This document shows, piece after piece, positions 5,750 to 44,036 of a stretch of DNA of 64,000 nucleotides. Each line of letters begins with the position of its first letter. The first letter of the stretch is position 1. A program made the position numbers and the translations under genes. The stretch lies in NCBI RefSeq assembly GCF_006381105.1, contig NZ_VDET01000002.1, positions 965,578 to 1,029,577 of the forward strand, given 5' to 3'. The DNA is from Flavicella sediminum. Lineage in GTDB: Bacteria > Bacteroidota > Bacteroidia > Flavobacteriales > Flavobacteriaceae. The notes beneath the pieces are model-generated. The model saw only the letters and a list, made by a program, of their open reading frames with translations, was not told the origin of the DNA and searched no databases.

Positions 5750-5766
5750 CCCAAAAAGAACAACTT

Positions 5767-6987: not shown

Positions 6988-7011
6988 CAAAACAGCTTTA
7001 CTTTAAGACCT

Positions 7012-12467: not shown

Positions 12468-13049
12468 ATGCAATTAAATTTAAAAGAAATACTTACCGCT
12501 TTTATGGTCTTATTTGCCGTAATTGATGTGATTGGAAACATTCCCATTGTAATTGACTTACGCAAAAAAGCAGGTCATATTCAATCTGAAAAAGCGGCAA
12601 TCATATCAGGAGTTATTATGGTTATTTTTCTTTTTTTAGGAAAAAGCCTTCTAACATTTATAGGCATTGATGTAAATTCATTTGCCGTTGCAGGTTCCTT
12701 TATCTTATTTTTTATTGCTTTAGAAATGATTTTGGGCATTACTCTTTATAAAGAGGATGAAGACACCTCCTCTTCCACTGCTTCTATATTCCCACTAGCT
12801 TTTCCTCTAATAGCCGGGCCAGGAAGCTTAACCACACTTTTATCTTTACGAGCAGAATTCCGTATAGAAAATATTATTGTGGCCGTTATTTTTAATGTCA
12901 TTGTTATTTACATTGTACTAAAGACTTCAACCAAGATTGAAAAAATTTTAGGACCAAACGGCATTAAGATAATTCGTAAAATATTTGGTGTCATCTTACT
13001 AGCCATTGCTGTAAAATTATTTACTGCCAATATAAAGGAACTATTTTAA
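12468..13049 (+). CDS. MarC/UPF0056 (NAAT-family) integral membrane protein
   Basis: 193 aa, six hydrophobic segments, family-typical N-terminus LTAFMVLFAVIDVIGNIPIV. Confidence 0.65.
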   Translation: MQLNLKEILTAFMVLFAVIDVIGNIPIVIDLRKKAGHIQSEKAAIISGVIMVIFLFLGKSLLTFIGIDVNSFAVAGSFILFFIALEMILGITLYKEDEDTSSSTASIFPLAFPLIAGPGSLTTLLSLRAEFRIENIIVAVIFNVIVIYIVLKTSTKIEKILGPNGIKIIRKIFGVILLAIAVKLFTANIKELF

Positions 13050-13140
13050 CAAAAGTAAACTCTTAACTAAATCTTTAAAACAAAAAACACCTTTTAATTC
13101 CAAAGAATCAAAAGGTGCTTACAATATTATTAATTACTGA

Positions 13141-28058: not shown

Positions 28059-28802
28059 TTATTTAGACGACAAACGTCTTAATTTTGCATCTATCTGATC
28101 CATTCTATCTTCTAGCTTCGAAACAAATTTTGGATACCTTTTCAACAACACACAAGAGACTTTCCAAAAATAAATTTCAGAATCTAAAGCCACGGTTATT
28201 GGCGCAATACGAATATGGTCCGCCAATAATTCGTAATTCTCCGTCGACTTGCGATATCTTCTAATAAATAAATTAGCATTTGCCAAAACAACAACAACAT
28301 CGTCTTCCTCCAACTCACTAGGCAAACTTTTTTCACCAATCACAACATCACCAGGAAACAATCCTTCTTCATTAGAAACCATATTTAAATCTTGTACCGC
28401 AAAGGCCAACAATTCAGAACCACCTTCTAAAGGAATCGTAATTTTAGGCAAAGAACCGTAACTCTTCGACCCGATAAAATCGTCTATAAACATTTTACCA
28501 TTCAAGTCATTTACAAAAGGGACTTCTGCAAAACCCGCTTTTACTACATGATTTACATCCGTTGTAATCCCACCATTAAAACTCAGCAATTGATTGACGG
28601 TAATCTCTTTTGTTAAAATATCGTCTATAGATATGCTAAAATAATTAGCAACCTTTATAATCGTATCTATCTTCGGCTCACTTCTACCCTCTTCATACGC
28701 ACCTAAAGTCGCTCTCTTTAAAGAGAATAAGTCGGCAAAAGCCTGCTGACTCAATTTTTTTACACCTCTAATTTTTTTAACATTTTTTCCGAAAAAAGAC
28801 AT
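28059..28802 (-). CDS. XRE-family HTH regulator with a C-terminal LexA/CI-like (S24-fold) domain; catalytic Ser-Lys dyad not evident
   Basis: 247 aa. N-terminal HTH: KLSQQAFADLFSLKRATLGAYEEGRSEPKIDTIIKVANYFSISIDDIL. C-terminal beta-rich domain (GDVVIGEKS...VVVVLANANLFIRRY) resembles the S24 fold. Divergent from the pspA-containing block. Confidence 0.55.
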   Translation of the reverse strand: MSFFGKNVKKIRGVKKLSQQAFADLFSLKRATLGAYEEGRSEPKIDTIIKVANYFSISIDDILTKEITVNQLLSFNGGITTDVNHVVKAGFAEVPFVNDLNGKMFIDDFIGSKSYGSLPKITIPLEGGSELLAFAVQDLNMVSNEEGLFPGDVVIGEKSLPSELEEDDVVVVLANANLFIRRYRKSTENYELLADHIRIAPITVALDSEIYFWKVSCVLLKRYPKFVSKLEDRMDQIDAKLRRLSSK

Positions 28803-28840
28803 ATTTTGCTAATTTTATTTGCAATTTAATTAATATTGTC

Positions 28841-28848
28841 TATATTTG
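28841..28848 (+). promoter_or_regulatory. Candidate promoter for the ybjN-pspA block: -7 box TATATTTG with TTG 19 nt upstream (28819-28821)
   Basis: TAnnTTTG consensus with a correctly spaced upstream TTG. About 155 nt upstream of the ATG at 29004. Only 39 nt from the divergent regulator start codon. Confidence 0.35.
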
Positions 28849-28863
28849 ACACATCAATAAGAT

Positions 28864-28871
28864 CAAAAGTA
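28864..28871 (-). promoter_or_regulatory. Candidate -7 box (TACTTTTG on the minus strand) for the XRE/S24 regulator gene
   Basis: Reverse complement of CAAAAGTA matches TAnnTTTG. The two divergent -7 boxes are back-to-back, about 20 bp apart. Confidence 0.3.
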
Positions 28872-29003
28872 ACAAAAATAGAGAAGTAAATCCACTGAAA
28901 ACACTGATAGTTCTAAAAAAATTAGCAATAACCAAAAAAAACTAAAAAACAGCACTCTCCTAGGTTCAAAAGATTTCGTAATATTAAAATCAAAATAAAA
29001 TAT

Positions 29004-29399
29004 ATGAAAGACCAATTTAACACCATTAAAAATTACTTGCTAGAGTTGAACTACAACATCACTCATGAAGACGAACAAGAAGGAATCCTGATGATTCAAA
29101 ATCGCAATGAAGGGATTGACAATTTAATTATAGGTATTGCCAGTCCAATTTTAATTATTGAACAATATATTTTCAAAATCAACAAGCCTAGCGAAAATAT
29201 CTTCCAGCAATTACTTCAAAAAAACAGAGACATAGTCCACGGAGCATTTGTACTTGACGAAACAGGAGAGAAAGTCATTTTTAGAGACACTTTACAAATT
29301 GAAAACATCGACTTGAACGAATTAGAAGGATCTATAAATTCATTGAGTTTATTACTAAGTGAATATTCCGAAAACATCATCCAGTTTTCCAAAGCCTAA
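29004..29399 (+). CDS. YbjN-domain protein (CesT/Tir-chaperone-like putative sensory transduction regulator)
   Basis: 131 aa, acidic, with an alpha/beta pattern typical of YbjN. Known as a recurrent PspA neighbour. Confidence 0.55.
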   Translation: MKDQFNTIKNYLLELNYNITHEDEQEGILMIQNRNEGIDNLIIGIASPILIIEQYIFKINKPSENIFQQLLQKNRDIVHGAFVLDETGEKVIFRDTLQIENIDLNELEGSINSLSLLLSEYSENIIQFSKA

Positions 29400-29471: not shown

Positions 29472-30170
29472 ATGAACATATTTAGAAGATTATTTAACGT
29501 AAGTAAAGCCGAAGCCCATTCTGCAATTGACAAAATGGAAGACCCAATCAAAATGACTGAACAAGGGATTCGCGACATGAAAAACGACTTAACACAAGCC
29601 CTTGAAGGACTTGCCCAAGTAAAAGCCATGTTGATCCGTTCTCAAAACGACAAAACGCAGTTTGAAACCAAAGCAAAAGATTATCAAAACAAAGCCATGC
29701 TTATTTTACAAAAAGCACAAAAAGGAGATCTTTCTGCTGAAAATGGAGATCGCTTAGCAAAAGAAGCTTTGATCAAGAAAGAAGAAAACACAGAACATGT
29801 AAATCGTTGCTCCATTGAAATAGACAAATTTTCAAAATCTGTTTCTCAATTAGAAACCAACGTAAACAGCCTGAAAAATAATATTAGCAAATGGGAAAAT
29901 GAATTAAAAACCCTTAAAGCTCGTGTAAAAGTATCTACCGCTACCAAGAATTTAAACAAACAAATGGCAGCCATTGATAGTTCTAGTACGGTAAACATGC
30001 TAGAAAAAATGAAAGAAAAAGTAACACAAGAAGAAGCTTTAGCAGAAGCCTATGGTGATATTGCCAATGACTCGAAAAGTATTGACGAAGAACTTGACAA
30101 AGCCTTAGACGGTAAAAGTACCAACGCCGATAACGATCTAGAAGCCCTAAAAAAACAAATGGGATTGTAA
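29472..30170 (+). CDS. pspA: Phage-shock protein A / IM30 (Vipp1) family, ESCRT-III-like
   Basis: 232 aa. MNIFRRLFNVSKAEAHSAIDKMEDPIKMTEQGIRDM... aligns with E. coli PspA (MGIFSRF...EDP...) over the whole coiled-coil length. Confidence 0.85.
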   Translation: MNIFRRLFNVSKAEAHSAIDKMEDPIKMTEQGIRDMKNDLTQALEGLAQVKAMLIRSQNDKTQFETKAKDYQNKAMLILQKAQKGDLSAENGDRLAKEALIKKEENTEHVNRCSIEIDKFSKSVSQLETNVNSLKNNISKWENELKTLKARVKVSTATKNLNKQMAAIDSSSTVNMLEKMKEKVTQEEALAEAYGDIANDSKSIDEELDKALDGKSTNADNDLEALKKQMGL

Positions 30171-30230: not shown

Positions 30231-30941
30231 ATGACCTTATACGAATTAGTGTTTTCACCCATAAACACACCACTGACATTATTATTAATTGCACTAACCG
30301 TATACAGAGTTGTTACCATGCTTTTTGGCCTTGACTTCGATTTTGACATTGATGTAGATCTTGATATCGATGTGGATGTTGACATAGACAACGACTTATC
30401 TATAGACAGCAGCGGTATGGATTTAGAAGATATTGCGAACCTTGAATTGAAAAACGAAACCATCGTAAAAGACAAAACTAAATCTTTAAAATGGTGGCAA
30501 GTCGTTTTAATTTACTTCAACTTCGCCGAGCTTCCCTTTATGTTTACCCTAACTTCTTGGGTGTTTTTTTGGTGGTTTATTACCGTTCTCGGAACCTACA
30601 TCACCTTAAGTCATCATAATGCTTTCGGACTTATAATTTTCTTAGCAGCTATATTGCCTTCATTAATTGTAAACAAAATATTTACCACACCTTTTAAAAG
30701 TATTTTTAAAAAACTAGAACGAAAAGGTGTCACTTCTATAGACTTACTTGGAAGAGAAGCAATTCTAGATTCAAATTTAACAGGTGATAAACTAGGACGC
30801 GTAAAAGTAAAAGTAGGATCCGATCCAATGATTATTTACGCAAAATCTATAGACGGAAAAACACTAAAAGTGGGTGAAAAAGTCTTAATCATTGACCAAT
30901 CAAAGGACAAAAAATATTACTATATCAAAAATAACTATTAA
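30231..30941 (+). CDS. NfeD/YqiJ-like membrane protein with a C-terminal OB-fold domain and an Asp-hydrophobic alternating repeat
   Basis: 236 aa. N-terminal TM helix, then DFDFDIDVDLDIDVDVDIDNDLSID (nt 30333-30407), 3-4 TM helices, and a C-terminal soluble beta domain (GDKLGRVKVKVGSDPMIIYAKSIDGKTLKVGEKVLIID) like the NfeD short-form OB fold. Sits directly upstream of flotillin with an 11-bp gap, as yqiJ sits before yqiK in E. coli. Confidence 0.6.
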   Translation: MTLYELVFSPINTPLTLLLIALTVYRVVTMLFGLDFDFDIDVDLDIDVDVDIDNDLSIDSSGMDLEDIANLELKNETIVKDKTKSLKWWQVVLIYFNFAELPFMFTLTSWVFFWWFITVLGTYITLSHHNAFGLIIFLAAILPSLIVNKIFTTPFKSIFKKLERKGVTSIDLLGREAILDSNLTGDKLGRVKVKVGSDPMIIYAKSIDGKTLKVGEKVLIIDQSKDKKYYYIKNNY

Positions 30942-30952
30942 AAAAAATTACT

Positions 30953-33049
30953 ATGAATTTAACTATGATTTCCCTTTCACTAACAGACATTGCCTCTTCC
31001 ATGATTGGAATTGCCATTGGCGGACTAGCAGGACTGGTATTACTATTCGTGCTTTTTGTAGCCATGTTCTACAAAAAAATTCCTCAAGGGGAAGCTATTA
31101 TCAAAACAGGTTTCGGAGGAACGCATGTAGCATTTGACAAAGGAATGTATGTTATTCCTGTTCTTCATAAAGTGGAAATCATGGACATTTCCGTAAAAAA
31201 GATTGAAGTCGAGCGTATGTTAGAAGATGGTCTTATTTGTAAAGACAATATGCGAGCAGACATAAAAGTAGCTTTCTTTGTAAGAGTAAACAAATCGAAA
31301 GATGCTATTATAGAAGTAGCTCAAACCATTGGTTGCGAAAGAGCTTCTGCAGAAGAAACTTTGTACGAATTGTTCGAAGCAAAATTTTCTGAAGCCTTAA
31401 AAACCGTTGGTAAAAAATTCATGTTTACAGAATTGTACGAAGCTCGTAGAGAATTTAGAGATGAAATTATCAACATTATTGGTACCGATTTAAACGGCTA
31501 CACACTGGAAGACTGTGCGATTGATTACCTGGAACAAACTCCGATTAAATACTTAAAAGCAGATAATATTTTAGATGCGGAGGGGATTAAAAAAATCACA
31601 GAGCTTACAGCAATTCAAAACATGAAGTCTAACTTGATCAAACGTGATGAAGAAAAAGTCATTCGCAAACAAGATGTAGAAGCACGTGAAGCAATTTTAG
31701 AATTAGACAAACAATTGGCTGAAAAAGAAGAGCAACAAAAAAGAGAAATTGCCAATATAAAAGCCAGAGAAGGAGCTGAAATTGCTAAAGTTGGTGAAGA
31801 AGAACGTTTAAAATCTGAAACAGCCAGAATTGCTACAGAAGAAAAAGTAAAAATTGCAGAAGAAAACAAAGACCGTCAAATTATTGTTGCTGCTAAAAAC
31901 AAAGAACGTACGGAAGTTGTTGAAACGGAAAGAGTATTAAAAGACCAACAACTAGAGGCTACTGAAAGAGTAAAAGTTGTGGCACTTGCCGATATTGAAA
32001 AAGAGAAAGCCGTTGAAGTGGAGAAAAAGAACATTCAAGATGTTATTCGCGAACGTGTTGCCTTAGAAAAAGGTGTGGTAGAAGAACAAGAATTAACAAA
32101 AGATATTGAAGCATTTAAAACAGCAGATCGTGACAAACAAGTAGCGATTACCATTGCCGAACAAGATGCCGAAGCTCAATTGATTAGAATTACCAAAGCT
32201 GCCGAAGCGCAAAAAGAAGCTGCCAAACAAAAAGCAGAAGAAATCAACATTGACGCACAGGCCAAAAAAGAAGCTTCGACTAAAGAAGCGGAAGCTAGAA
32301 AAATATTAGCCGATGCTCAAGCCAAAGAAGAAGCAACCATCGGTCTTTCTGAAGCACAAGTACTGCATGCCAAAGCAGATGCTCACGAACGTGAAGGAAT
32401 TGTAGAAGCAAGCATTATTGAAAAAACCGCACTTGCCGAAGCTGTAGGAATTGAAGCAAAAGCAGAAGCTGTTAAAAAACAAGGTTTAGCTGAAGCTGAA
32501 GTTATTAGAGAAAAAGCCATTGCAGATGCTGCCGGTATTGAAGAAAAAGCAGAAGCAATGAAAAAACTTGATGGTGTTGGAAAAGACCACGAAGAGTTTA
32601 AACTAAGACTGGATAAAGAATTACAAGTAGACTTAGCTGAAATAAACATCCAAAAAGAAATTGCAGATGCACAAGCTGACGTAATTGGAGAAGCATTGAA
32701 AGCTGCAAATATTGATATTGTTGGTGGTGAAACAATGTTCTTCGATCAAATTATTGGGCAAATTACACGCTCTAAAGGTATCGACAGATTGGTCAATCAT
32801 TCTGAAAACATCACCGAAGTAAAAGATGCTATCTTAGGTTCTAACGACGTAAAAGGAAATCTATTAGAAAAAGTAAAAGGTTTTGCTCAAGACTACGGAA
32901 TTGGCTCTGAGGATATCAAAAACTTAACAATCTCTAGCTTATTATTGAAACTTCAAGGTGAAGCAGACTCTAACGATCAAAGAAATTTATTTTCTAATCT
33001 ATCCAACCTTTCCAAAGCACTTGGCTTAAGTGATAAGAAATTAAGTTAA
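30953..33049 (+). CDS. Flotillin (SPFH/band-7) family protein with an extended Glu/Ala-rich coiled-coil tail
   Basis: 698 aa. N-terminal TM anchor. SPFH core (KTGFGGTHVAFDKGMYVIPVLHKVEIMDISVKKIEV). About 350 aa of EA-repeat coiled coil with internal near-duplications: AEAVGIEAKAEAVKK / ADAAGIEEKAEAMKK. Confidence 0.85.
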   Translation: MNLTMISLSLTDIASSMIGIAIGGLAGLVLLFVLFVAMFYKKIPQGEAIIKTGFGGTHVAFDKGMYVIPVLHKVEIMDISVKKIEVERMLEDGLICKDNMRADIKVAFFVRVNKSKDAIIEVAQTIGCERASAEETLYELFEAKFSEALKTVGKKFMFTELYEARREFRDEIINIIGTDLNGYTLEDCAIDYLEQTPIKYLKADNILDAEGIKKITELTAIQNMKSNLIKRDEEKVIRKQDVEAREAILELDKQLAEKEEQQKREIANIKAREGAEIAKVGEEERLKSETARIATEEKVKIAEENKDRQIIVAAKNKERTEVVETERVLKDQQLEATERVKVVALADIEKEKAVEVEKKNIQDVIRERVALEKGVVEEQELTKDIEAFKTADRDKQVAITIAEQDAEAQLIRITKAAEAQKEAAKQKAEEINIDAQAKKEASTKEAEARKILADAQAKEEATIGLSEAQVLHAKADAHEREGIVEASIIEKTALAEAVGIEAKAEAVKKQGLAEAEVIREKAIADAAGIEEKAEAMKKLDGVGKDHEEFKLRLDKELQVDLAEINIQKEIADAQADVIGEALKAANIDIVGGETMFFDQIIGQITRSKGIDRLVNHSENITEVKDAILGSNDVKGNLLEKVKGFAQDYGIGSEDIKNLTISSLLLKLQGEADSNDQRNLFSNLSNLSKALGLSDKKLS

Positions 33050-33062
33050 AAATACAAACTGC

Positions 33063-33095
33063 TCTATGCTTCCTTAAAACATAGAGCAGTTATTC
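33063..33095 (+). terminator. Perfect 10-bp stem-loop after the flotillin gene; possible partial terminator or attenuator
   Basis: CTGCTCTATG-cttccttaaaa-CATAGAGCAG followed by a moderately T-rich tract. Lies in the 256-bp gap before the giant ORF. Confidence 0.4.
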
Positions 33096-33305: not shown

Positions 33306-36300
33306 ATGAAAAAAAACGCTATAACACTTGAAGGAGGAACTTATGAAATCATCCAAAACAGACTGCAAAATCATAAAAGTGACTTGGTGGAACGTTTGCA
33401 AGTTTTAAACACCGACAGAAAAGACATTTTTGGAGCCGTTGAAACCAAATTAATTGCGAATGACAGAATAAACACCGAGAATTCTTGTATTGCCAGAGAT
33501 ATAGTTTCTTTTGGGAATATTTGTTTATTTGGATACAATGTCCATTTTGGTTTGCGTTCAGAAATAAAATTAGCCGATGTATTCAGTGTTTATAAATTTC
33601 ATGAAAACAGATTTCAGCTACAAGACTTAACTTTTATCAACCAAGAAGCATTTGTCACTGATTTTAAAAATTTATACAAATACTATAGAAATACTTTTTT
33701 CACAAAATTCATGCTTACCGAGCAATACCTATACATGGTATTTCAAATTGGTGAAGAAATCAGCGATATCAAAGCTTTTAAATGGCTGGTAAAAAACAAC
33801 CAAATAAGCTACATCGACAATAGAAGTGATCATGAATACAAATTCCCTAACCAACACGAATTTAATTGGCAGGAAGTTAATTATGACAATTTCAGAAAAG
33901 GCGCACATCCTCATGTTTCTATTTTAGACAAGGTTTTTGTTGAAACTATTGGCGGTGATTTAACCATTAAAATAGAAGACAATTCTCAATCGGGCTTAGG
34001 AATTTATGCCGAACCTGTTGATAACAAAGACCAGACTTTAGATGACGGACAGTACAGATATGCCGACTTAGGTAACTTGACGGTTTTAGAAATTACACCT
34101 TACCTAGAGGAAGCACGTTATTTTGTGTACAACCATAAAGTACAAGAGGTAGCCCGAATTCAAAGCATAAAAGATACCGCAGTATTGTTGCCAGACGACC
34201 AAGGATTAATTTTTCCGGAAGGTTATTATTTACAGACAGGTACATTAAAAAAATTCGACAGAACTGTCAACAACGTAAAATTTCAGAAAAAAGTAGCCTC
34301 TCCTAATGGAGAAGATTTCTTATATGTTTTTTATGAAGAAACAGCTGGAGATTATGTGCTAATGCACTACAATATTATTGAGCAAAATATTCACCCACCC
34401 ATAATTTGCAACGGTTTTACACTTTTAGAAAACGGAGAACTCTCCTATTTTAAATCGGAAAATGAAGCGAATAAACATCATGTTATTCAAATTTGGCAAA
34501 CGCCATTTTCCAAAAAAATTAAATCCAATCCTGCCCATAGCGATTCACTTTTATACAAAATTGGAAACAAAGACATTGTAAAGGCCATGGCGGAATGCCA
34601 GGAACTAATTACACTTCTAAACAAAGAAGATAATTATGATGGTTTGTACAACGACATCGCCAAACAAAGCATTGATATAGTCGATTCTTATTATTGGATT
34701 TCAGAAAAAGAAACATCCAACTTAAGCGAACCCCTTACAGAAATAAACAGCACGGCAAATTCTGCCATTGATGAATTTGAGAAAGTAGTTCAGTTAAAGA
34801 AAATCGCCGCAGAGGTCACTGAAAATTTAGAAGCCGAAATTCAGAAACTTTTTGACAACATTAAACACAGCACCTTTAATTCTATTGATGATTTTGTTCA
34901 ACTTTTAACCCGATTAAGAGGCTCTCAAGGAAATTCAATTTCGCTAAAAGAAACACGCTATATAAACATAGAGCGCTTAGACGAAATCAATGAAACTATA
35001 AAGGAAGAAACGGAACGAATTTCAAGAAGATGTATTACTTTTTTACTGAATAAAAAGGCTTTAGACCCCTATCAAAAAAGAATTCAAGAGAAAAATAAAG
35101 TCTTAACCGAGTTAACAAAAGTAATTGAAGGAAAAGACTTAGAAGCAAGCATCAATCAGATAAGTGCCGACCTTGAATTACTAATAGATATTGTCAATAA
35201 TTTAGATATTGAAGACACCTCACATTCCACCACTATAATTGATAATATTTCTTTATTATTTGCAGAAATAAATCAATTAAAAGCAGGTGTAAAAAGAAAA
35301 GTTCAAAGCTTAAATGCCAAAGAAAGCAAAGCTGATTTTATTGCCCAATTAAAATTATTTGACCAAAGTATCATCAATTTTATTGATATAGCCAACACTC
35401 CTGAAAAATGTGAAGAATACCTTACCAAACTTTCGGTACAACTGGAAGAATTGGAAGGGAAATTTGCCGATTTCGATGAATACATTACAGAAATCATCAA
35501 CAAAAGAGAGGAAGTTTATAGCGCTTTTGAAAACAGAAAAAACACCTTAGTTGAAGCCAGAAACAAAAAAGGAATCGCCCTTCAAAATGCTTCTGAAAGA
35601 ATTTTAAAAAGCATTCATAAAAAAGCGGCAACTTTTAAAACAGAAGAAGAAATCCACGGTTATTTTGCTTCCGATATTATGGTGAATAAATTGCACAATA
35701 TTATTGAGCAATTACAAGAGCTAGAGGAAACAGGAAAAGCAGAAACCCTGCAAACCAATTTAAAATCGGCAAAAGAAGAGGTTCTTAGAAAATTAAAAGA
35801 CAGCTTAGATTTATACGAAGATGGCGATTCTGTCATCAAACTAGGAAAGCACAAATTTGGTGTTAACAAACAAGCCCTAGACTTAAATATTGTCAATAAA
35901 AACGGAGACTTATTTTTCCATTTGTCAGGAACCGATTTTCATGAAAAAATTGAAAATGAAGTTTTAAACTTATCCAAAGATATATGGAATCAAGATTTGA
36001 TTTCTGAAAATGAACATGTTTATCGATCTGAATTTTTAGCTTATAAAATATATCAAAAATACCCCCTTGCTTTCTTACTAGAAAAAACGACTGAAAACCT
36101 TGTGGAGCTAGTCAAACAAGAAAGCAGTGAAAACTATTCTGAAGGCTATGTAAAAGGTGTACACGATTTAGATGCGGCAGTCATTTTAAAACTTCTTATT
36201 CAAACAGAAAACGATTTACAATTATTGCGATTTACTCCAGTTACAAGGGCCAATGCGCAATTGTTTTGGAATCAATTAGAAAACGAAACAAAACAAGCTT

Positions 36301-38120
36301 TAAACCATAAAATAAAAGCAACAGGTGCAATTTTAAACATCTTTCCAGCATCCAAAGAATACCAAAGTTGTTTAGAAGCTATTTTAGATTTATTGCCAAG
36401 AAAAGAAAATTCTATTGCCAATTACCTATTTCAAGAAATAAAACAAAACGATCATTTTATTGTAAGTCAACAAGCCTTTGACTTAAAAACTGAATTTGTC
36501 AACTTTTTAAAAACAAAAGAAGTCTGGTCTAATTTTGAAAAATCATTGAATAATTTTACATCAGTCACCGACAGACTAGAATTGTGTACCCAATGGTTAA
36601 AATCGTATTGCAATACAACAGCTAGCAACTATGAATTTTACATTGCAGAAAGCGTTGTGCTGTTATTATTTAACAACCTACAACTACCTTATACTGCAAA
36701 TGAAACCCTGGAATCAAAAGAATTAAGAGGAGCACATTCACAAATTGTAGACGGCCTATACAGCTTTAACTATTTCGACTTTATTACTCGATTGTCAGAA
36801 TTTAACAACACTGTTGTAAAGCGATTTACAGACTACAAAGAGACTAAAAAAGAAATCATAGCAAACAAAAAAAGAAAATTAAAACTGAATGAGTTCAAAC
36901 CAAAAGTGCTTTCTTCTTTTGTTAGAAATAAATTGATCAATCAGGTTTACTTACCTCTTTTTGGAGATAACTTATCAAAACAATTGGGAACTGTTGGTCA
37001 CAACAAACGTACCGACCGTATGGGAATGCTATTGCTGATATCTCCACCAGGATATGGAAAAACAACCTTAATGGAATATATTTCAGAAAGATTGGGCTTG
37101 GTGTTTATGAAAATAAACGGTCCTGCTATCGGACATGAAATTACATCTGTAGACCCAATGGCAGCGAATAATTCTGCCACCAAACAGGAATTGGAAAAAC
37201 TAAATCTTGCTTTTGAAATGGGAAACAATGTGATGTTGTACCTAGATGATATTCAACATTGCAACCCAGAGTTTTTACAAAAATTTATATCGCTTGCAGA
37301 TGGACAGCGAAAAATAGAAGGCGTTTACAAAGGGGAAACAAAAACCTACGATTTTAAGGATAAAAAATTCTGTGTAATCATGGCCGGAAACCCTTATACA
37401 GAAAGCGGTGATAAATTCCGAATTCCAGATATGTTAACCAACCGTGCAGATATTTACAATTTAGGAGATGAAATTGGAGAAACGGAAAACTTATTCAAAT
37501 TAAGTTTGATAGAAAATGCACTGACATCCAACGATACTTTACGTCAATTAAGCAGTAAAAATTTCGATGATCTTTATACTTTAATAAACCATATTGAACA
37601 AAAAAGTACAGAAAGTATTGATTTAAAAGGAAACCATTCGCCACAAGAAATTAACGATTATATTTCTGTTTTAGAAAAAGTAATTAGCCTAAGAAACACG
37701 GTAGTAAAAGTAAATGAACAGTATATAAAATCTGCGGCAACAGAAGACGCCTACCGAACTGAACCAGCATTTAAACTACAAGGATCGTATAGAGACATGG
37801 GAAAATTGACGTCTAAAATTGTTCCTATTATGAATGCCAATGAGCTAGACAGTTTGTTATTGAGTCACTATGAAAGTGAATCACAAACACTAACCTCAGC
37901 AGCAGAAGCCAATTTATTAAAATACAAGGAAATGACTTCTTCTTTAACAAATGAAGAAGCCCTAAGATGGGAAAATATTAAAGAAACCTTTGTAAAAAAC
38001 AACAAGTTAAAAGGTTTTGGAAATCAAAATGAAATGGCACAGGTTTTACAACAACTGATGGATTTTTCTGAAAATTTAGAAGGCATCAAAGATGTTCTAA
38101 AAAACGGATTTGAAAAGTAA
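33306..38120 (+). CDS. Giant (1604-aa) cytoplasmic protein of unknown function with a C-terminal AAA+/P-loop NTPase module
   Basis: Uninterrupted ORF with no signal peptide or TM segment. Walker A LLLISPPGYGKTTL (nt 37026-37070). Walker B VMLYLDDIQ (nt 37230-37256). Sensor-1-like CVIMAGNPYT (nt 37371-37400). The first ~1200 aa have no motif I recognise; the central part is E/K/L/I-rich and looks helical or coiled-coil. Confidence 0.7.
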   Translation: MKKNAITLEGGTYEIIQNRLQNHKSDLVERLQVLNTDRKDIFGAVETKLIANDRINTENSCIARDIVSFGNICLFGYNVHFGLRSEIKLADVFSVYKFHENRFQLQDLTFINQEAFVTDFKNLYKYYRNTFFTKFMLTEQYLYMVFQIGEEISDIKAFKWLVKNNQISYIDNRSDHEYKFPNQHEFNWQEVNYDNFRKGAHPHVSILDKVFVETIGGDLTIKIEDNSQSGLGIYAEPVDNKDQTLDDGQYRYADLGNLTVLEITPYLEEARYFVYNHKVQEVARIQSIKDTAVLLPDDQGLIFPEGYYLQTGTLKKFDRTVNNVKFQKKVASPNGEDFLYVFYEETAGDYVLMHYNIIEQNIHPPIICNGFTLLENGELSYFKSENEANKHHVIQIWQTPFSKKIKSNPAHSDSLLYKIGNKDIVKAMAECQELITLLNKEDNYDGLYNDIAKQSIDIVDSYYWISEKETSNLSEPLTEINSTANSAIDEFEKVVQLKKIAAEVTENLEAEIQKLFDNIKHSTFNSIDDFVQLLTRLRGSQGNSISLKETRYINIERLDEINETIKEETERISRRCITFLLNKKALDPYQKRIQEKNKVLTELTKVIEGKDLEASINQISADLELLIDIVNNLDIEDTSHSTTIIDNISLLFAEINQLKAGVKRKVQSLNAKESKADFIAQLKLFDQSIINFIDIANTPEKCEEYLTKLSVQLEELEGKFADFDEYITEIINKREEVYSAFENRKNTLVEARNKKGIALQNASERILKSIHKKAATFKTEEEIHGYFASDIMVNKLHNIIEQLQELEETGKAETLQTNLKSAKEEVLRKLKDSLDLYEDGDSVIKLGKHKFGVNKQALDLNIVNKNGDLFFHLSGTDFHEKIENEVLNLSKDIWNQDLISENEHVYRSEFLAYKIYQKYPLAFLLEKTTENLVELVKQESSENYSEGYVKGVHDLDAAVILKLLIQTENDLQLLRFTPVTRANAQLFWNQLENETKQALNHKIKATGAILNIFPASKEYQSCLEAILDLLPRKENSIANYLFQEIKQNDHFIVSQQAFDLKTEFVNFLKTKEVWSNFEKSLNNFTSVTDRLELCTQWLKSYCNTTASNYEFYIAESVVLLLFNNLQLPYTANETLESKELRGAHSQIVDGLYSFNYFDFITRLSEFNNTVVKRFTDYKETKKEIIANKKRKLKLNEFKPKVLSSFVRNKLINQVYLPLFGDNLSKQLGTVGHNKRTDRMGMLLLISPPGYGKTTLMEYISERLGLVFMKINGPAIGHEITSVDPMAANNSATKQELEKLNLAFEMGNNVMLYLDDIQHCNPEFLQKFISLADGQRKIEGVYKGETKTYDFKDKKFCVIMAGNPYTESGDKFRIPDMLTNRADIYNLGDEIGETENLFKLSLIENALTSNDTLRQLSSKNFDDLYTLINHIEQKSTESIDLKGNHSPQEINDYISVLEKVISLRNTVVKVNEQYIKSAATEDAYRTEPAFKLQGSYRDMGKLTSKIVPIMNANELDSLLLSHYESESQTLTSAAEANLLKYKEMTSSLTNEEALRWENIKETFVKNNKLKGFGNQNEMAQVLQQLMDFSENLEGIKDVLKNGFEK

Positions 38121-38532: not shown

Positions 38533-39084
38533 ATGGGAATATTTGATTTTTTCAAGAAAAAAGAAAAAGAAAGACATTTTGATCCGACCAACATTACTGT
38601 AAGAGACTTAGGCAAAGGATACATTTTTGAATACATAATAGAAACTTGGACCGTTACCGCTTTGTTTGAATACGACTGGGGCGACAATTATTTTACCCGA
38701 GAGTTTATCATTAAAAACGGTACTATTGAAAAGTATTTAGAACTTGAGGATGATGGTGGCTTGGTTGTTACCATTTCCGAAAAAGTAAAACTGAGAAAAT
38801 TAGGTGACGAGGTGTGTGATTATATAGACAAACACGAAAAACCGCCTAAAAAAATAAACTTCGAAGGCGTTCAATATTTCCTTGATGAAAAATCTCCTGG
38901 CTTCTCTAAAGAAATTGATGCTGCCAACTGGGAAGAACTTATTTCCTACGACTACCTAGACAAAGAAGAAGAAAAAACACTTTGCATAGTTCAGTATGGC
39001 GACGAAGAATTTGAAGTAAGCAAAGGAACGATTATTAGTGAACTGGCTATTTCTAATATATTACCTGTGGCAGACAATTATTAG
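38533..39084 (+). CDS. DUF4178-like (B. subtilis YdjI-like) protein
   Basis: 183 aa, soluble and acidic, with conserved aromatic and acidic blocks (YDWGDNYF, FEGVQYF, CIVQYGDEEFEV). Family assigned from memory. YdjI is encoded in the B. subtilis pspA-ydjGHI operon. Confidence 0.5.
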   Translation: MGIFDFFKKKEKERHFDPTNITVRDLGKGYIFEYIIETWTVTALFEYDWGDNYFTREFIIKNGTIEKYLELEDDGGLVVTISEKVKLRKLGDEVCDYIDKHEKPPKKINFEGVQYFLDEKSPGFSKEIDAANWEELISYDYLDKEEEKTLCIVQYGDEEFEVSKGTIISELAISNILPVADNY

Positions 39085-39121
39085 TCTTCAAAACTCTAAC
39101 TTTGATTTTAAATTAATTCGA

Positions 39122-39919
39122 ATGAAAACACTCAAAACACTACTCTTCACAAGCGTACTACTTCTCGTAATTTCTTGCGGAAAAGAAGTCCGTAAAAAGT
39201 ATCTTAAATCGCCTTTAGACAACATCATCACTACATATATTGATGTACAAAACTACAGCGTTATCCTAGCGGATATGGATTATAAAGAGGCTACCGACAA
39301 GTATTTTCACAAGTACAAAATCATACTAGAAAAAAACAATGCTACAAAATCTACCGAAGATGATTTTGACATAACTACAACAGATTGGAAGGAAGTTTCT
39401 GCCATTACTTTTGAAGAGCACCAGCAAGATTTAGGAATGACCGTACTTTCTAAAAAAGACGGTGTGTTAGACAAAAAAGCAACACCCGCTGGCTACAACA
39501 ACTATGTAGGTAACAACAAATACGGAAACTGGCAAAGACAAAGCAACGGTACTTCTTTTTGGGTATTTTATGGGCAATACCATTTTATGAGATCTATGTT
39601 CTATGGTTCTAGCCATAGGTACTACAGAAATGATTATGATTATTACAGAACCAACCATTACGGAAGAAGTAATTACTATGGTAGAACTAATAATTTTGGA
39701 ACCTCTACGTATAAAAACACAAGTTCTAGCTGGACTGCCAAACCCAAAACATTTAAAGACAAGGTAAGAAGCAATGTAAAAAGAAGTTCTTCCGCTCTAA
39801 AATCAAAAGGGTACAGCTCTAGTAAAAGTTACAAAAGCTCAAACCAAACAACAAGAAACACAAACAGATACAGCAGCTCAAGTTCTTCACGCTCTCGTAG
39901 TGGCGGATTTGGTAAATAA
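39122..39919 (+). CDS. Lipoprotein with a Tyr/Arg/Ser/Asn/Gly-rich low-complexity C-terminal half
   Basis: Start at the ATG at 39122 (MKTLKTLLFTSVLLLVISCGKE, signal peptide plus lipobox Cys). The track ORF begins upstream at 39038. C-terminus reads ...YYRNDYDYYRTNHYGRSNYYGRTNNFG...SSSSSSRSRSGGFGK. Confidence 0.5.
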   Translation: MKTLKTLLFTSVLLLVISCGKEVRKKYLKSPLDNIITTYIDVQNYSVILADMDYKEATDKYFHKYKIILEKNNATKSTEDDFDITTTDWKEVSAITFEEHQQDLGMTVLSKKDGVLDKKATPAGYNNYVGNNKYGNWQRQSNGTSFWVFYGQYHFMRSMFYGSSHRYYRNDYDYYRTNHYGRSNYYGRTNNFGTSTYKNTSSSWTAKPKTFKDKVRSNVKRSSSALKSKGYSSSKSYKSSNQTTRNTNRYSSSSSSRSRSGGFGK

Positions 39920-39937
39920 TATAAAAGCTAGAAAAAC

Positions 39938-40807
39938 ATGGACAAATACATCAATATTATCGAGTTATCACATTCCCTTGGATACATCGTCAGCGGCTTT
40001 ATCATTTTTATCATTGGAAAAATTGCCTACAAATTACTTCACCCAAATATCAACATTCAACACGAACTAGTTGAAAAAGATAATTTTGCTTTTATCCTTT
40101 CGTATGTCGGTTATTTTGCCGCTTTAATAACAGCCATTGGTGGCGCTATTGTTGGCGAAAGTTATGATTTTGTAACTGACATCCTGCATATTTTTATGTA
40201 CGGAGGTATCGCTATTGTATTGTTATTATTGGCCGCATGGATTAGCAATAAAGTTATTCTAAATAAATTCGATCTTAAAAAAGAAATTATTACAGATAAA
40301 AACGAAGGTTCAGGAGTTATTGAAGCGGCTATTTATATGGCAAACGGACTTATTTTATACGGTGCTTTGGTGGGCGAATCTGAAACTTTAGTAGAAGGAA
40401 TTACCACTTTTATTATTTATTGGCTGATTGGAAATACAGTTCTTATTCTAGCTTCCAAACTATTTATTACTTGGATGAGCTACGACATTCATGCTGAAGT
40501 AGAAAAAGACAATGTAGCGGCTGGAATTAGTTTTTCTGGGGCTATACTCGCTATAGGAATTATTACCATGAATGCTATTTTAGATCCTTTTATTGATTGG
40601 ACTACAACAATTATAGACATCAGTTTGCAAACAATACTAGGTTGTTTACTACTGCCTATTATGCGTGTTTTTGCAGATAAAATTTTATTACCTGGAAGAA
40701 AACTTACCGATGAAATTATCAACCAAGAAAAACCAAATATTGGTGCCGGTTTGATTGAAGCCTTCGCCTATATCGCTTCTGCAATATTAATTACATGGAG
40801 TATCTAA
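39938..40807 (+). CDS. DUF350-like (E. coli YjfL-like) polytopic membrane protein with a repeated unit
   Basis: 289 aa. Four copies of an [ED]K[DPN]N-plus-hydrophobic-helix unit: EKDNFAFILSYVGYFAALITAIGG, DKNEGSGVIEAAIYMANGLILYG, EKDNVAAGISFSGAILAIGIITMN, EKPNIGAGLIEAFAYIASAILITW. Stop overlaps the next gene by 13 bp. Confidence 0.6.
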   Translation: MDKYINIIELSHSLGYIVSGFIIFIIGKIAYKLLHPNINIQHELVEKDNFAFILSYVGYFAALITAIGGAIVGESYDFVTDILHIFMYGGIAIVLLLLAAWISNKVILNKFDLKKEIITDKNEGSGVIEAAIYMANGLILYGALVGESETLVEGITTFIIYWLIGNTVLILASKLFITWMSYDIHAEVEKDNVAAGISFSGAILAIGIITMNAILDPFIDWTTTIIDISLQTILGCLLLPIMRVFADKILLPGRKLTDEIINQEKPNIGAGLIEAFAYIASAILITWSI

Positions 40808-42351
40808 AACAAAATTCTTTTGTATTAAAAGCCGCTATTTTTGCAACAGGTTTTGCAGGAATAGTAGCTGAATATACTCTTTCTACACTGGCCACCTATT
40901 TTATTGGAAATTCAATTTTTCAATGGACCATGATTGTCTCCTTGATGCTATTTTGCATGGGACTGGGAAGTAGATTGAGTAAATTAATTACAAAAAATTT
41001 AATTCAGAATTTTTTAATTCTAGAAACCACACTTTCGCTAATTGTTGCTTTTTCTTCGGTTTTGGTGTACACCCTTGCTTCGGTTAGTGAATACTACGGA
41101 ATTGTAATTTATTCCTTGAGTATGATTATCGGATTGCTGATTGGTTTAGAAATTCCATTGGTGGTTAGAATTAATAAAGAATACGAAGACTTAAAAAGCA
41201 ACATCTCTTCCATTTTAGAAAAAGACTATTATGGAAGTTTAATTGGCGGTGTATTTTTTGCCTTTATCGGCTTACCAATATTGGGCTTATCGTATACGCC
41301 TTTTGTCCTTGGAATTATTAATTTCTTAGTCGCACTCATTGTATTTTATCGTTTTAAAGACAAAATCAACAAGCAGCATACCTTTCGATTAAAAGCTGTT
41401 TTAACGGTGGTTTTTGCTATTTTAATTACAGGGATTGCCTTTACTGAACCTATTATTCAGTGGGGAGAACAGAAAAAATTCAAAGACAAAGTCATTTATT
41501 CTGCACAAACCAAATACCAAAATATTGTTTTAACCGAATGGAAAAAGGAACACTGGTTGTACTTAAATGGAAATTTACAATTCTGCTCCATTGATGAAAA
41601 AATGTATCACGAACCTTTGGTACACCCCATCATGCAATTGCACCCAAATCCGCAACGAATTTTAATTTTAGGTGGTGGCGATGGTTGTGCGGTTCGTGAG
41701 ATACTAAAATACCCAAGTGTTGAAAAAATTGACATGGTTGATTTAGATCCAAAAATGACAGATTTAGGAACACAGCACCCTGTTCTTATAAACATCAACC
41801 AAGGCAGCATGAACAGTGAAAAATTGAGTGTAATTAACAAGGATGCCTACATTCATTTGGAACAAAACACAAGTGACTTTTACGACATTATTATTGCCGA
41901 TTTACCTGACCCAAGAAACATTGAGCTTGGAAGGTTGTATTCTCATGAATTTTATTCGCTTTGCAATAGAAAACTAAGACCCAACGGCTTTATCATTACC
42001 CAAGCCGGAAGTCCGTATTTTGCTACAAAAGCTTATCACTGTATTGGAAAAACAATGCAATCAGCTGGTTTTACAACCGTAAACTTACACAATCAAGTAT
42101 TGTCTATGGGCGAGTGGGGTTGGATATTAGGAACAAAGAACACAGCGACAAACGCAAAGCAACTCAAGGAAAAATTACAAAGTATTGATTTCAAAAATGT
42201 AGAAACAAATTGGATCAACAACGAAGCTATGCAACTAATTACTTCTTTTGGAAAAGATTTTTTTAAACTAAATGATACTAGTGAAATTAATAAAGTCCAC
42301 AACCCTGTACTTTATCAATATTATTTAGATGGAAACTGGGATTTATATTAA
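40795..42351 (+). CDS. speE: Membrane-anchored polyamine aminopropyltransferase (spermidine/spermine synthase with an N-terminal ~7-TM domain)
   Basis: 518 aa. Residues 1-215 are polytopic. The C-terminal domain has ILILGGGDGCAVREILKY...VDLDPKMTDL...IIIADLPDP...FYS, the spermidine-synthase GGGDGG and D-L-D/ADLPDP signature. Confidence 0.8.
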   Translation: MEYLKQNSFVLKAAIFATGFAGIVAEYTLSTLATYFIGNSIFQWTMIVSLMLFCMGLGSRLSKLITKNLIQNFLILETTLSLIVAFSSVLVYTLASVSEYYGIVIYSLSMIIGLLIGLEIPLVVRINKEYEDLKSNISSILEKDYYGSLIGGVFFAFIGLPILGLSYTPFVLGIINFLVALIVFYRFKDKINKQHTFRLKAVLTVVFAILITGIAFTEPIIQWGEQKKFKDKVIYSAQTKYQNIVLTEWKKEHWLYLNGNLQFCSIDEKMYHEPLVHPIMQLHPNPQRILILGGGDGCAVREILKYPSVEKIDMVDLDPKMTDLGTQHPVLININQGSMNSEKLSVINKDAYIHLEQNTSDFYDIIIADLPDPRNIELGRLYSHEFYSLCNRKLRPNGFIITQAGSPYFATKAYHCIGKTMQSAGFTTVNLHNQVLSMGEWGWILGTKNTATNAKQLKEKLQSIDFKNVETNWINNEAMQLITSFGKDFFKLNDTSEINKVHNPVLYQYYLDGNWDLY

Positions 42352-42353
42352 GT

Positions 42354-42662
42354 ATGAAGACAACCTACAAACATATTGAAGCAAATATTTACAGTCATAA
42401 AATTTGGTCTGCTTGCACCGAGCCTTCAGCACTTAAAGAAACTTATGGCGGTTTATTAAAGGAAGTCGATTTTACGATTATTCTCTTTAATGAACATCAT
42501 TTTCCAGAACAAGGCTACACCTGTTTTTGGTTATTAGGTGAAAGTCATTTGGCCATACATACCTTTCCAGAAAGTGGCAAAAGTTATATTGAATTGAGCA
42601 GTTGCAATAAAGAAAAATTAGACTTATTCGTTGACAAGGAAAAAAGTATAAACCTGAAATAA
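42354..42662 (+). CDS. Small pyruvoyl-dependent S-adenosylmethionine decarboxylase proenzyme (SpeH/class-1-like)
   Basis: 102 aa. LLGESHLAIHTFPESG matches the AdoMetDC self-cleavage (E-S) and catalytic-site signature. Starts 2 bp after the speE stop. Confidence 0.65.
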   Translation: MKTTYKHIEANIYSHKIWSACTEPSALKETYGGLLKEVDFTIILFNEHHFPEQGYTCFWLLGESHLAIHTFPESGKSYIELSSCNKEKLDLFVDKEKSINLK

Positions 42663-42663
42663 A

Positions 42664-43440
42664 ATGAAAAAAAAAGTTAGAGATTTTATCAACCACAACA
42701 AAACCTTTATCAAATTCATTTATGCGCTAATTGTCTTAAATATCATTGCCTTAATTCTAGAGTCTTATGAGGAATTAAATGCCCAATACAGCCATATTTT
42801 TTATTATTTCGAACTGTTTTCAGTTGCTATTTTTACCGTGGAATACTTTATCCGAATTTGGGTTTCTGACAAAACAAAAGAAGACAAAAAAGAACGACTC
42901 AACTTTGCTTTCTCTACCTTAGGAATCATCGATTTGATTGCCATACTTCCCTTTTACCTTCCCTTTATTTTTCCTATCGATTTAAGAATTGTTCGTATAC
43001 TTCGCTTGTTTCGTTTGTTAAGAATTTTTAAACTAAGTCGCTATTCAAAATCACTAAAAACCATCCAGTATATTTTTAAAGAAGTAAAAGGAGAACTTTC
43101 CATCACCGTATTTGTCACTTTTGTTTTGATGATTTTATCTTCAACACTTATGTACTATATAGAACATGACGACCAACCAGAGCAATTTGCAAGTATTGGC
43201 GATGCTTTTTGGTGGTCTGTAGCAACACTAACAACCGTTGGCTATGGAGATGTTTACCCTGTAACCGGCCTAGGAAAATTATTAAGTGGAATTATTGCCT
43301 TGATCGGAATTGGTTTTGTAGCACTACCTACAGGAATTATCAGTTCTGCCTTTATTGCAAAAATACAAGCAGAAAAAAAACAGAAAAAGAAGAAAACCAT
43401 GTGTAACTGTCCACATTGTGGGAAAAATTTCGACTTATGA
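42664..43440 (+). CDS. Voltage-gated K+ channel (6-TM Kv-like) with a C-terminal CxCxxC zinc-ribbon-like tail
   Basis: 258 aa. S4 voltage sensor RIVRILRLFRLLRIFKLSRYSK. Selectivity filter TTVGYGDVYP. C-terminal ...KKKKTMCNCPHCGKNFDL. Starts 1 bp after the AdoMetDC stop. Confidence 0.8.
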   Translation: MKKKVRDFINHNKTFIKFIYALIVLNIIALILESYEELNAQYSHIFYYFELFSVAIFTVEYFIRIWVSDKTKEDKKERLNFAFSTLGIIDLIAILPFYLPFIFPIDLRIVRILRLFRLLRIFKLSRYSKSLKTIQYIFKEVKGELSITVFVTFVLMILSSTLMYYIEHDDQPEQFASIGDAFWWSVATLTTVGYGDVYPVTGLGKLLSGIIALIGIGFVALPTGIISSAFIAKIQAEKKQKKKKTMCNCPHCGKNFDL

Positions 43441-43976
43441 TTCCTAACAAATACATCATACAGTTTGTCATCTTATTATATGTTATCTATATAGTGAGCC
43501 TTGTTTTTCCCATAACAAAATTTGGAATTGTTCCAAGAACAACACAAGGACTTGCAGGAATTTTTACGGCTCCATTTTTACATGGCGGAATTTGGCACCT
43601 TGTTTCCAATACCATTCCTTTGCTTGTGTTACTTACTGTATTAAATCATTTTTATCCTAAAAAAACCATAGCGGTTGTGCTATTTATTATTGTTGCTAGC
43701 GGAATACTGGTATGGATTTTTGCAAGAAAAGCAAACCACATAGGGGCTAGCGGACTTATATACGGACTTGCCACATTTTTAATTTTAAATGGATTTTTGG
43801 AACAGAAATTTGTTTCCATACTTGTTTCATTAGCCGTAGCCTTACTCTATGGTGGATTGATCTGGGGAATTTTTCCTTCAGTCAGATCCTATATATCTTG
43901 GGAAGGACATTTATTTGGAGCCGCATCAGGTGTGTTTATTGCCTTTTTATTAAAAAACAAAGCTTTGTACACCTAA
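43437..43976 (+). CDS. Rhomboid-family intramembrane serine protease
   Basis: 179 aa from the ATG at 43437 (ATGA overlap with the K+ channel stop; the track start at 43416 is a TTG). TM2 HxxxN (WHLVSN). Catalytic GASGLIYG. TM6 His in EGHLFGAASG. Confidence 0.75.
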   Translation: MIPNKYIIQFVILLYVIYIVSLVFPITKFGIVPRTTQGLAGIFTAPFLHGGIWHLVSNTIPLLVLLTVLNHFYPKKTIAVVLFIIVASGILVWIFARKANHIGASGLIYGLATFLILNGFLEQKFVSILVSLAVALLYGGLIWGIFPSVRSYISWEGHLFGAASGVFIAFLLKNKALYT

Positions 43977-44000: not shown

Positions 44001-44036
44001 AAAAAAGGCTGTAAAATAATTTTACAGCCTTTTTTA
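44001..44036. terminator. Bidirectional intrinsic terminator closing the + strand block and the convergent minus-strand gene
   Basis: A6-GGCTGTAAAAT-aa-ATTTTACAGCC-T6. Confidence 0.6.

Follow-up and report, generated by a model that had tools for sequence, protein, structure and literature searches.

A DUF3686-Family ATPase with a Predicted MoxR-Class Motor in a Conserved NfeD-Flotillin Gene Cassette of Flavicella sediminum

Introduction

The closest described counterpart of the gene system considered here, a giant AAA+ ATPase and its neighbors encoded in a 64,000-nucleotide (nt) stretch of Flavicella sediminum DNA (contig NZ_VDET01000002.1, positions 965,578 to 1,029,577 of the forward strand; hereafter the window), is the operon described by Ravi et al. 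(2024, mSystems 9:e00847-23, PMC11237479), in which a CesT/Tir-PspA dyad is combined with three more genes, one of them coding for a three-transmembrane (3TM) protein prototyped by YqiJ/YuaF. Shorter versions, with only band-7/flotillin, YqiJ/YuaF and in some cases the ATPase, have a wider distribution, and for the operon these authors propose an ATP-dependent membrane remodeling comparable to Snf7/Vps4 (PMC11237479). The example given in their Table S3, ANH61663.1 of Dokdonia donghaensis, is from the Flavobacteriaceae and its entry lists YqiJ-YuaF and 'cHTH+Protease', while a second operon type in the same study consists of DUF4178, lipoprotein, DUF350 and spermine synthase genes, the spermine-synthase family being a 7TM fusion (PMC11237479). 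A first-pass annotation of the window, made from the letters of the DNA, had put the ATPase forward as a candidate remodeler of PspA and flotillin assemblies; this hypothesis is already in print as a comparative-genomics prediction.

The ATPase is a concrete candidate for an energy-dependent step in the opening, recycling or regulation of bacterial flotillin/SPFH cages and PspA polymers. According to a 2025 review, bacteria appear to lack a Vps4-like ATPase. FloA-NfeD of S. aureus is an ATP-independent holdase for unfolded proteins (PMC11222466) and in B. subtilis the SPFH protein YdjI brings PspA to the membrane (PMC8581546). HflK/C-FtsH provides a case of an SPFH cage working with an AAA+ machine at the membrane. 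In what follows we describe the ATPase as a member of an already described family, to which the window adds one member and a refinement rather than a discovery. The value of the analysis lies in shifting the hypothesis from PspA to flotillin-NfeD, in naming the motor as MoxR-class and in flagging the database label 'DNA repair ATPase' as unsupported.

Results

The ATPase and Its Family

The gene is a single unbroken open reading frame (ORF) of 1604 amino acids (aa) without an internal stop, as had been noted before, and its parts are as follows.

33306..38120 (+): DUF3686-family AAA+ ATPase, 1604 aa; Pfam DUF3686, DUF7902, AAA_5 and AAA; >4600 homologues; database name 'DNA repair ATPase'
33381..34694 (+): N-terminal DUF3686 domain, aa 26-463; Pfam PF12458, whole profile covered, E=1.4e-178, 594.4 bits against a cut-off of 25; in the model, a beta-rich body resembling a divergent beta-propeller, together with a long helix and a helical cap
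35055..35306 (+): DUF7902, aa 584-667; Pfam PF25472, E=2.9e-23, 82.3 bits against a cut-off of 26; within the Pro/Gly-poor, probably helical center (aa ~400-1200)
36141..36176 (+): conserved motif EGYxKGVHDxDA, aa 946-957; invariant columns in a 19-sequence alignment
37026..37463 (+): AAA+ alpha/beta core, aa 1241-1386; Walker A SPPGYGKT (K1252), Walker B D1314-D1315, sensor-1 N1362, candidate arginine finger R1380
37311..37352 (+): beta-hairpin between alpha3 and beta4, aa 1336-1349; from the secondary structure of the model, at the pre-sensor-1 hairpin position
37464..38117 (+): C-terminal helical region, aa 1387-1604; invariant columns, all-helical in the model, holds QGSYR

The first-pass annotation had taken the protein for an orphan with some 1200 unrecognizable N-terminal residues. 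Neither description survives, given the more than 4600 homologues in at least six phyla that were returned by a word-indexed search and the two Pfam domains that precede the motor, for which the AAA_5 and AAA models match aa 1242-1365. All of the best 120 homologues are ~1600 aa long with the same Pfam architecture and 61-82% identity; they are mostly from Flavobacteriaceae, the closest named match being a Wenyingzhuangia homologue at 79% identity, and many are labeled 'DNA repair ATPase' by NCBI. When aa 1-1200 served as query in an exhaustive HMMER search, 1309 clusters at 50% identity were obtained, 399 of them at E<=1e-30, and colinear full-length matches of 1600-1900-aa architecture persist down to 25% identity. 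With PF12458 at the N-terminus, PF25472 in the center and an AAA+ module at the C-terminus, colinear over ~1600 aa, the protein has the organization of the DUF3686 family. It contains no TM-like segment (maximum Kyte-Doolittle 19-residue mean of 1.07), in agreement with the earlier reading, and is a soluble protein whose propeller and motor occupy opposite ends.

Two details of the wider family were observed along the way. Members of a Streptacidiphilus/Kitasatospora/Streptomyces sub-branch (P0263-P0329) lack a precomputed AAA Pfam match and have a C-terminus that is ~20-40 aa shorter, while retaining every catalytic motif, and Nonomuraea sp. NBC_00507 carries two ATPase paralogues (P0337/P0338) on the same chromosome.

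A Three-Gene Cassette Conserved across Phyla

In order to compare gene order one genome per species was scanned, giving at least 578 related loci, of which the best 80 (L001-L080), from Bacteroidota, Planctomycetota, Verrucomicrobiota, Desulfobacterota and Clostridia, were used. The window proteins served as jackhmmer seeds against all ORFs of these loci and counts refer to the 61 loci for which 6.5 kb or more of upstream sequence was available, except where another total is stated. A flotillin gene lies directly upstream of the ATPase gene on the same strand in 59/61 loci from five phyla, and an NfeD-like gene is found ahead of the flotillin in 58/61. Such an order, NfeD-like to flotillin to ATPase, speaks against the possibility, raised in the first-pass annotation, that an unrelated ATPase had landed here by chance. 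PspA is present in 32/61 loci, CesT in 31/61 and an HTH-S24 (helix-turn-helix, HTH) gene in 31/61, the last co-occurring with the PspA module; every locus with this module is from Bacteroidota, and 31 relatives keep the order of the window, HTH-S24, CesT, PspA, NfeD-like, flotillin, ATPase. The idea of a mechanoenzyme tied to both PspA and flotillin is therefore upheld for flotillin by conserved gene order (59/61), with PspA sharing the locus in only 32/61. All-against-all clustering of neighboring ORFs showed no conserved neighbor beyond these six genes, the other clusters being antisense shadow ORFs.

The same arrangement extends to much more distant relatives. Upstream flotillin genes were found in 6/6 extra actinobacterial or very distant loci (L081-L086), with an NfeD-like gene in L081-L085; Streptomyces, Streptacidiphilus, Nonomuraea and two members that are only 25% identical all have the order NfeD-like, flotillin, ATPase, and the homology of the neighbors in these loci was confirmed by profile searches. 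The flotillin has a median length of 697 aa in 64 loci and its alignment columns are 60-75% identical across phyla. The gap between the flotillin and ATPase genes ranges from -11 to 2360 bp (median 124), so that its length is not conserved, and values between -11 and 33 bp occur in Clostridia, Verrucomicrobiota, Planctomycetota and two Bacteroidota; because of these very short gaps in several phyla flotillin and ATPase can be placed in one operon. The conserved unit is a three-gene cassette, NfeD-like, flotillin and ATPase, of which PspA, CesT and the repressor are a lineage-specific extension. That the invariant partners are flotillin-NfeD, and not PspA, is new relative to the published account.

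PspA does turn up in other settings. At L084 a PspA_IM30 gene (12902-13648, - strand) lies convergent to and immediately downstream of a 25%-identical ATPase, with no CesT, and at L024 PspA is 6 kb downstream on the opposite strand. The association with PspA thus recurs in other arrangements and is not obligatory.

Two apparent gene fusions were discarded. P0156, which looked like an NfeD1b_N::DUF3686 fusion, is probably a frameshift artefact, with residues ~230-490 that are Arg/Ala/Pro-rich and out-of-frame-looking; it comes from a '5x' low-coverage long-read metagenome contig (L086 8001-15100) in which the ATPase is split into two genes. P0202, joining flotillin residues 205-600 to ATPase residues 203 onward, could not be validated and was not used. 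L086 itself carries a variant of the cassette in which the flotillin gene is followed by a long (protease-type) NfeD1b-type gene.

The AAA+ Motor

The three motifs reported in the first-pass annotation are exactly where it had placed them: GYGKTT at aa 1249-1254 (nt 37050-37067), VMLYLDDIQ at aa 1309-1317 (nt 37230-37256) and MAGNP at aa 1359-1363 (nt 37380-37394). In a conservation alignment of 19 ATPase members with 28-48% identity the Walker A SPPGYGKT, the Walker B D1314-D1315 followed by Q-H, and AGNP with N1362 are all invariant, as are R1380 within NRAD, a loop GPxxGxxxTSxDP after strand beta2, and a C-terminal QGSYR (aa 1492-1496, nt 37779-37793) that is preceded by a ~100-residue helical insertion and could be the sensor-2 arginine motif. 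Since the Walker A Lys, the Walker B DD, the sensor-1 Asn and R1380 are unchanged from 28% to 86% identity ATPase activity would appear to be under selection; judged by these residues the AAA+ active site is intact and the enzyme is predicted to be catalytically competent.

Pfam AAA_5 (dynein-related) matches 18/18 tested members and is the best AAA-type model for the motor, with PF00004 nearly equal. An AlphaFold2 model of aa 1160-1604, computed from an 18-sequence alignment (model numbering is protein numbering minus 1159), consists of a standard AAA+ core followed by all-helical regions. Between alpha3 and the sensor-1 strand the predicted structure has a hairpin, aa 1336-1349 (model strands 177-182 and 185-190), with a local predicted local distance difference test score (pLDDT) of ~76-83; at the helix-2 insert position the model has no beta2-alpha2 hairpin, just the GPxxGxxxTSxDP loop. 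In a Foldseek comparison with the PDB NorQ ranks first and CbbQ fourth, both MoxR proteins, with MCM interleaved and after these, then Lon and RuvB, although the sequence identity between model and MoxR structures is only 13-16%. On the strength of the model the motor is of the MoxR class.

Other assignments fared less well. The DD form of Walker B had been read as leaning toward initiators of the DnaA/DnaC/IstB type; the structure comparison gave neither an initiator-specific helical insert nor initiators as the closest structures. A sequence profile had pointed to the classical AAA clade by matching NVL, Rix7 and p97 over the Walker A stretch only, and was overruled by both structure comparisons. 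A search of the PDB by sequence with the full protein gave one marginal match, to VAT (E=0.007). As for Vps4, whose logic had been invoked earlier, the MoxR-class motor is not a homologue: no MIT domain was detected by Pfam and neither a canonical aromatic pore loop nor double Arg fingers were found. An SMC/SbcC/RecN type can also be rejected, as there were no SMC_N, AAA_23 or ABC matches and the sole P-loop (aa 1246-1253) lies inside the contiguous AAA+ fold.

N-Terminal and Central Regions

The region aa 26-463 is modeled with high confidence as a divergent beta-propeller with a long helix and helical cap. The N-terminal profile gave zero matches in a search of the PDB by sequence. The profile, AlphaFold and Foldseek analyses that the first-pass annotation had recommended thus assign the protein to the Pfam DUF3686 family, its motor, as modeled, to the MoxR class and its N-terminus to a predicted propeller. 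Between aa ~400 and 1200 there are only 3-6 Pro+Gly per 100 residues, a composition that is compatible with a region that is probably mainly helical and that agrees with the helical-looking center described previously; a short beta-looking stretch at aa ~840-880 breaks up this region. The motif EGYxKGVHDxDA, with G951, H953 and D956 invariant in the 19-sequence alignment, lies amid the supposed coiled coil and suggests a functional site there.

Gene Neighborhood in the Window

The genes and the one RNA feature flanking the ATPase are the following.

26675-27964 (+): tyrosyl-tRNA synthetase (TyrRS)
28059-28802 (-): divergent repressor candidate, cI/LexA-like, HTH_3 + Peptidase_S24 (Pfam; S24 match of 20.6 bits, below the 23.3-bit cut-off)
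29004-29399 (+): CesT/Tir-like chaperone, 131 aa, paired with PspA (Pfam CesT_Tir_1, E=2.1e-57)
29472-30170 (+): PspA/IM30, 232 aa (Pfam PspA_IM30, E=8.9e-43)
30231-30941 (+): NfeD/YqiJ/YuaF-like membrane protein, 236 aa, with TM-like segments and a small C-terminal beta domain (Pfam NfeD E=0.11, below threshold)
30953-33049 (+): flotillin-type protein, 698 aa, with N-terminal TM, SPFH/Band_7, a long E/A/K-rich coiled coil and a C-terminal domain
33057-33091: stem-loop after the flotillin gene, 16-bp perfect stem (terminator scan)
38533-39084 (+): DUF4178
39038-39919 (+): lipoprotein-like ORF
39938-40807 (+): DUF350/YjfL
40795-42351 (+): protein with a spermine-synthase domain in its C-terminal half
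42354-42662 (+): S-adenosylmethionine (AdoMet) decarboxylase
42664-43440 (+): K+ channel
43416-43976 (+): rhomboid

The PspA, SPFH/flotillin and DUF350/YjfL genes (29472-30170, 30953-33049 and 39938-40807) are those named as neighbors before. The full-length flotillin and the NfeD-like protein have no Pfam match even at E=10; the excised N-terminal 254 aa of the flotillin, a protein with one TM-like segment, match Band_7 with E=3.7e-15. We presume that the coiled coil trips the HMMER bias filter. The precomputed Pfam column is likewise empty for the ~690-aa flotillin genes in L081, L083 and L085, and automated annotation will often overlook flotillins of this long type.

Downstream of the ATPase the block 38533-43976 is closed by a strong, terminator-like hairpin at 44001-44035. 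The YjfL-side genes had been offered as context for the ATPase; they are indeed present in the window, but the DUF4178/DUF350/spermine-synthase block is downstream in only 4/80 loci (L001, L002, L037 and L077, all Bacteroidota). Both operon types of Ravi et al. share one CesT-PspA dyad in the window. The ORF 39038-39919 as called has a GTG start and overlaps the end of the DUF4178 gene; its true start is probably Met29 (nt 39122), which opens a lipoprotein-type signal, MKTLKTLLFTSVLLLVISC, and the C-terminal ~110 aa of the protein form an unusual Y/R/S/N/G-rich low-complexity tail. An operator search in the divergent promoter region 28803-29003 gave AT-rich imperfect repeats only, none convincing, and an Rfam scan of the whole window gave no match.

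The flanking gaps of 256 bp (flotillin-ATPase) and 412 bp (ATPase-DUF4178) and the upstream hairpin are as first noted. The stem-loop starts 8 nt past the flotillin stop codon, and a 75-nt segment across this stop folds with z < -2.5 relative to shuffles in 36/65 loci. These long stems have unrelated sequences, so it is the structure that recurs and not the sequence; where the gap is tiny, as in Clostridia and in some Verrucomicrobiota and Planctomycetota, there is no hairpin and the genes look translationally coupled. The hairpin may be a partial terminator or an mRNA-stabilizing 3' hairpin, and it probably keeps the level of the ATPase below that of the scaffold. The suggestion that dosage of the ATPase is controlled separately from its neighbors is therefore plausible in view of the recurring hairpin; the gap length itself varies from -11 to 2360 bp. 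A sigma-70 promoter scan of the window gave 51 sites as against 52.5 expected in shuffled sequence, with a consensus that is not appropriate for Bacteroidota.

Discussion

The reading that we favor, to which we would give an even chance of being correct, is that of a soluble MoxR-class DUF3686 AAA+ enzyme whose target is the flotillin-NfeD assembly and for which PspA is an accessory in particular lineages. The C-terminal AAA+ modules would form a ring, as in the NorQ hexamer, and the N-terminal beta-propeller, carried on a long helical arm, would dock on the cytoplasmic part of flotillin-NfeD. ATP hydrolysis could then open, disassemble or reset the flotillin oligomer, or pull clients from it, adding an ATP-driven step to an otherwise ATP-independent scaffold. 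In most sampled Bacteroidota CesT-PspA and the divergent HTH-S24 repressor may link the cassette to PspA-type membrane repair under stress control.

Several points weigh against an enzyme of this kind acting on flotillin-NfeD. Ring formation and propeller docking are things that we infer, and the confidence of the AAA+ model is only moderate (pLDDT 76.6, predicted template modeling score, pTM, 0.57). Gene neighborhood speaks for functional coupling, not for the substrate or for the direction, assembly versus disassembly, and 2/61 loci, L062 and L066, carry the ATPase without an adjacent flotillin. Characterized MoxR ATPases (NorQ-NorD, CbbQ-CbbO) act via a VWA-domain partner, and the clustering of neighboring ORFs gave no such partner among the conserved neighbors. 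To our knowledge the flotillin-NfeD pairs YqiJK (E. coli) and YuaFG (B. subtilis) operate without such an ATPase, which would make it an accessory and not a general requirement. Our literature search found no experimental work on any member of the DUF3686 family.

A broader and more tentative proposal, which we hold to be possible without expecting it, is that the DUF3686 ATPase is the missing energy-consuming part of bacterial scaffold dynamics, a MoxR motor that arose independently of Vps4, disassembles or resets flotillin/SPFH cages and in Bacteroidota also couples this to PspA polymers. If true, it would be the first dedicated ATP-driven remodeler of flotillin/SPFH cages or PspA polymers in bacteria.

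It is also conceivable, if unlikely, that the ATPase is a client chaperone that extracts, refolds or hands over damaged membrane-associated proteins held by flotillin-NfeD. The closest structural matches from Foldseek, NorQ and CbbQ, mature or reactivate enzymes, and the Bacteroidota cassette includes a CesT/Tir-type chaperone; the ATP-independent holding of unfolded proteins by S. aureus FloA-NfeD (PMC11222466) fits as well. On the other hand, neighbor clustering shows no conserved client or protease gene in the cassette and the VWA adaptor is absent among the conserved neighbors, while the sequence evidence is unable to tell such a chaperone apart from a remodeler of flotillin.

A functional analogue of Vps4, disassembling or recycling PspA polymers with flotillin-NfeD as only the membrane platform, strikes us as rather improbable. 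It would account for CesT-PspA in the same operon in 32/61 loci and for the different PspA arrangements in L024 and L084, which suggest repeated association; recruitment of PspA by an SPFH protein in B. subtilis (PMC8581546), the Snf7/Vps4 parallel drawn by Ravi et al. (PMC11237479) and the vacancy left by the apparent absence of a bacterial Vps4-like ATPase (2025 review) are all in keeping with it. However, a PspA gene within 10 kb is lacking in about half of the loci, including every Planctomycetota, Verrucomicrobiota, Clostridia and Desulfobacterota locus sampled, nor is there PspA at three loci of named Actinobacteria, and Pfam did not detect an MIT domain.

That the gene belongs to an anti-phage or conflict system, with a large NTPase as the sensor that sets off a membrane effector, we regard as very unlikely. 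A P-loop protein of this size and with several domains, beside membrane proteins and with a cI-like repressor upstream, brings such systems to mind, as does one of the two stand-alone copies, at L062 (Desulfobacteraceae, 4351-6996), where genes for a STAND/NACHT-like NTPase and a TPR protein lie ahead of the ATPase in a context unlike all other loci. The PADLOC P-loop matches, to IetA and mad8 at E of about 1e-4, are weak, with very low scores or confined to Walker A (IetA 19.2 bits over 30 residues, mad8 18.4 bits), and there was no significant defence model. The sequences are highly conserved, in a way that looks vertical (61-82% identity for the best 120 homologues, flotillin columns 60-75%), and synteny is fixed across phyla with flanks that are varied and largely metabolic or housekeeping, such as TyrRS in the window.

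An ATPase for DNA repair we hold to be highly improbable, its only footing being names (Pfam DUF3686 'ATPase involved in DNA repair', NCBI 'DNA repair ATPase') and the LexA/cI-like HTH-S24 gene that adjoins the operon in Bacteroidota, while Pfam, NCBIfam and PADLOC show no DNA-binding, nuclease or SMC/ABC-type domain, the sole P-loop is that of the C-terminal MoxR-type AAA+ module, the invariant neighbors are two membrane proteins, and the literature search turned up no paper mentioning DUF3686. The name probably goes back to old coiled-coil matches to SbcC-like COGs.

Comparison with Known Systems

The window and the operon of Ravi et al. have identical gene order, including the divergent cHTH+protease gene, and the ATPase is described in the same terms in both, as propeller, coiled coil and AAA+ module; the Dokdonia ATPase orthologues are 62% identical to the ATPase of the window. 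The window differs in having the second operon type and an AdoMet decarboxylase directly downstream, and the motor, which Ravi et al. class among the 'classical AAA+ ATPases', is here placed by its model in the MoxR class.

With NorQ/CbbQ (MoxR; AAA_5 also spans dynein and midasin) the ATPase shares intact Walker A and B, sensor-1, an arginine finger and, in the model, the pre-sensor-1 hairpin. It is ~1350 residues larger than a typical MoxR protein, with an N-terminal propeller and helical arm, and its Walker B is DD rather than DE, with no clear helix-2 insert in the model. Vps4/CdvC acting with ESCRT-III follows an analogous logic, an AAA+ enzyme encoded beside a polymer-forming membrane remodeler (PspA is an ESCRT-III homologue), but the ATPase of the window is from a different AAA+ clade and PspA is missing from about half of the loci.

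The two genes upstream of the ATPase form the same kind of pair as E. coli YqiK-YqiJ, B. subtilis FloT-YuaF and S. aureus FloA-NfeD, none of whose operons is known to include the ATPase. FloT and YqiK are ~150-190 aa shorter than the ~700-aa flotillin found here, which has an extra C-terminal region. FtsH is a membrane-anchored, classical-clade AAA+ protease inside an SPFH cage, whereas the ATPase of the window has no TM segment, no protease domain and a motor that is MoxR-class by its model; HflK/C-FtsH and prohibitin-m-AAA are nonetheless precedents for the combination of an SPFH assembly with an AAA+ machine.

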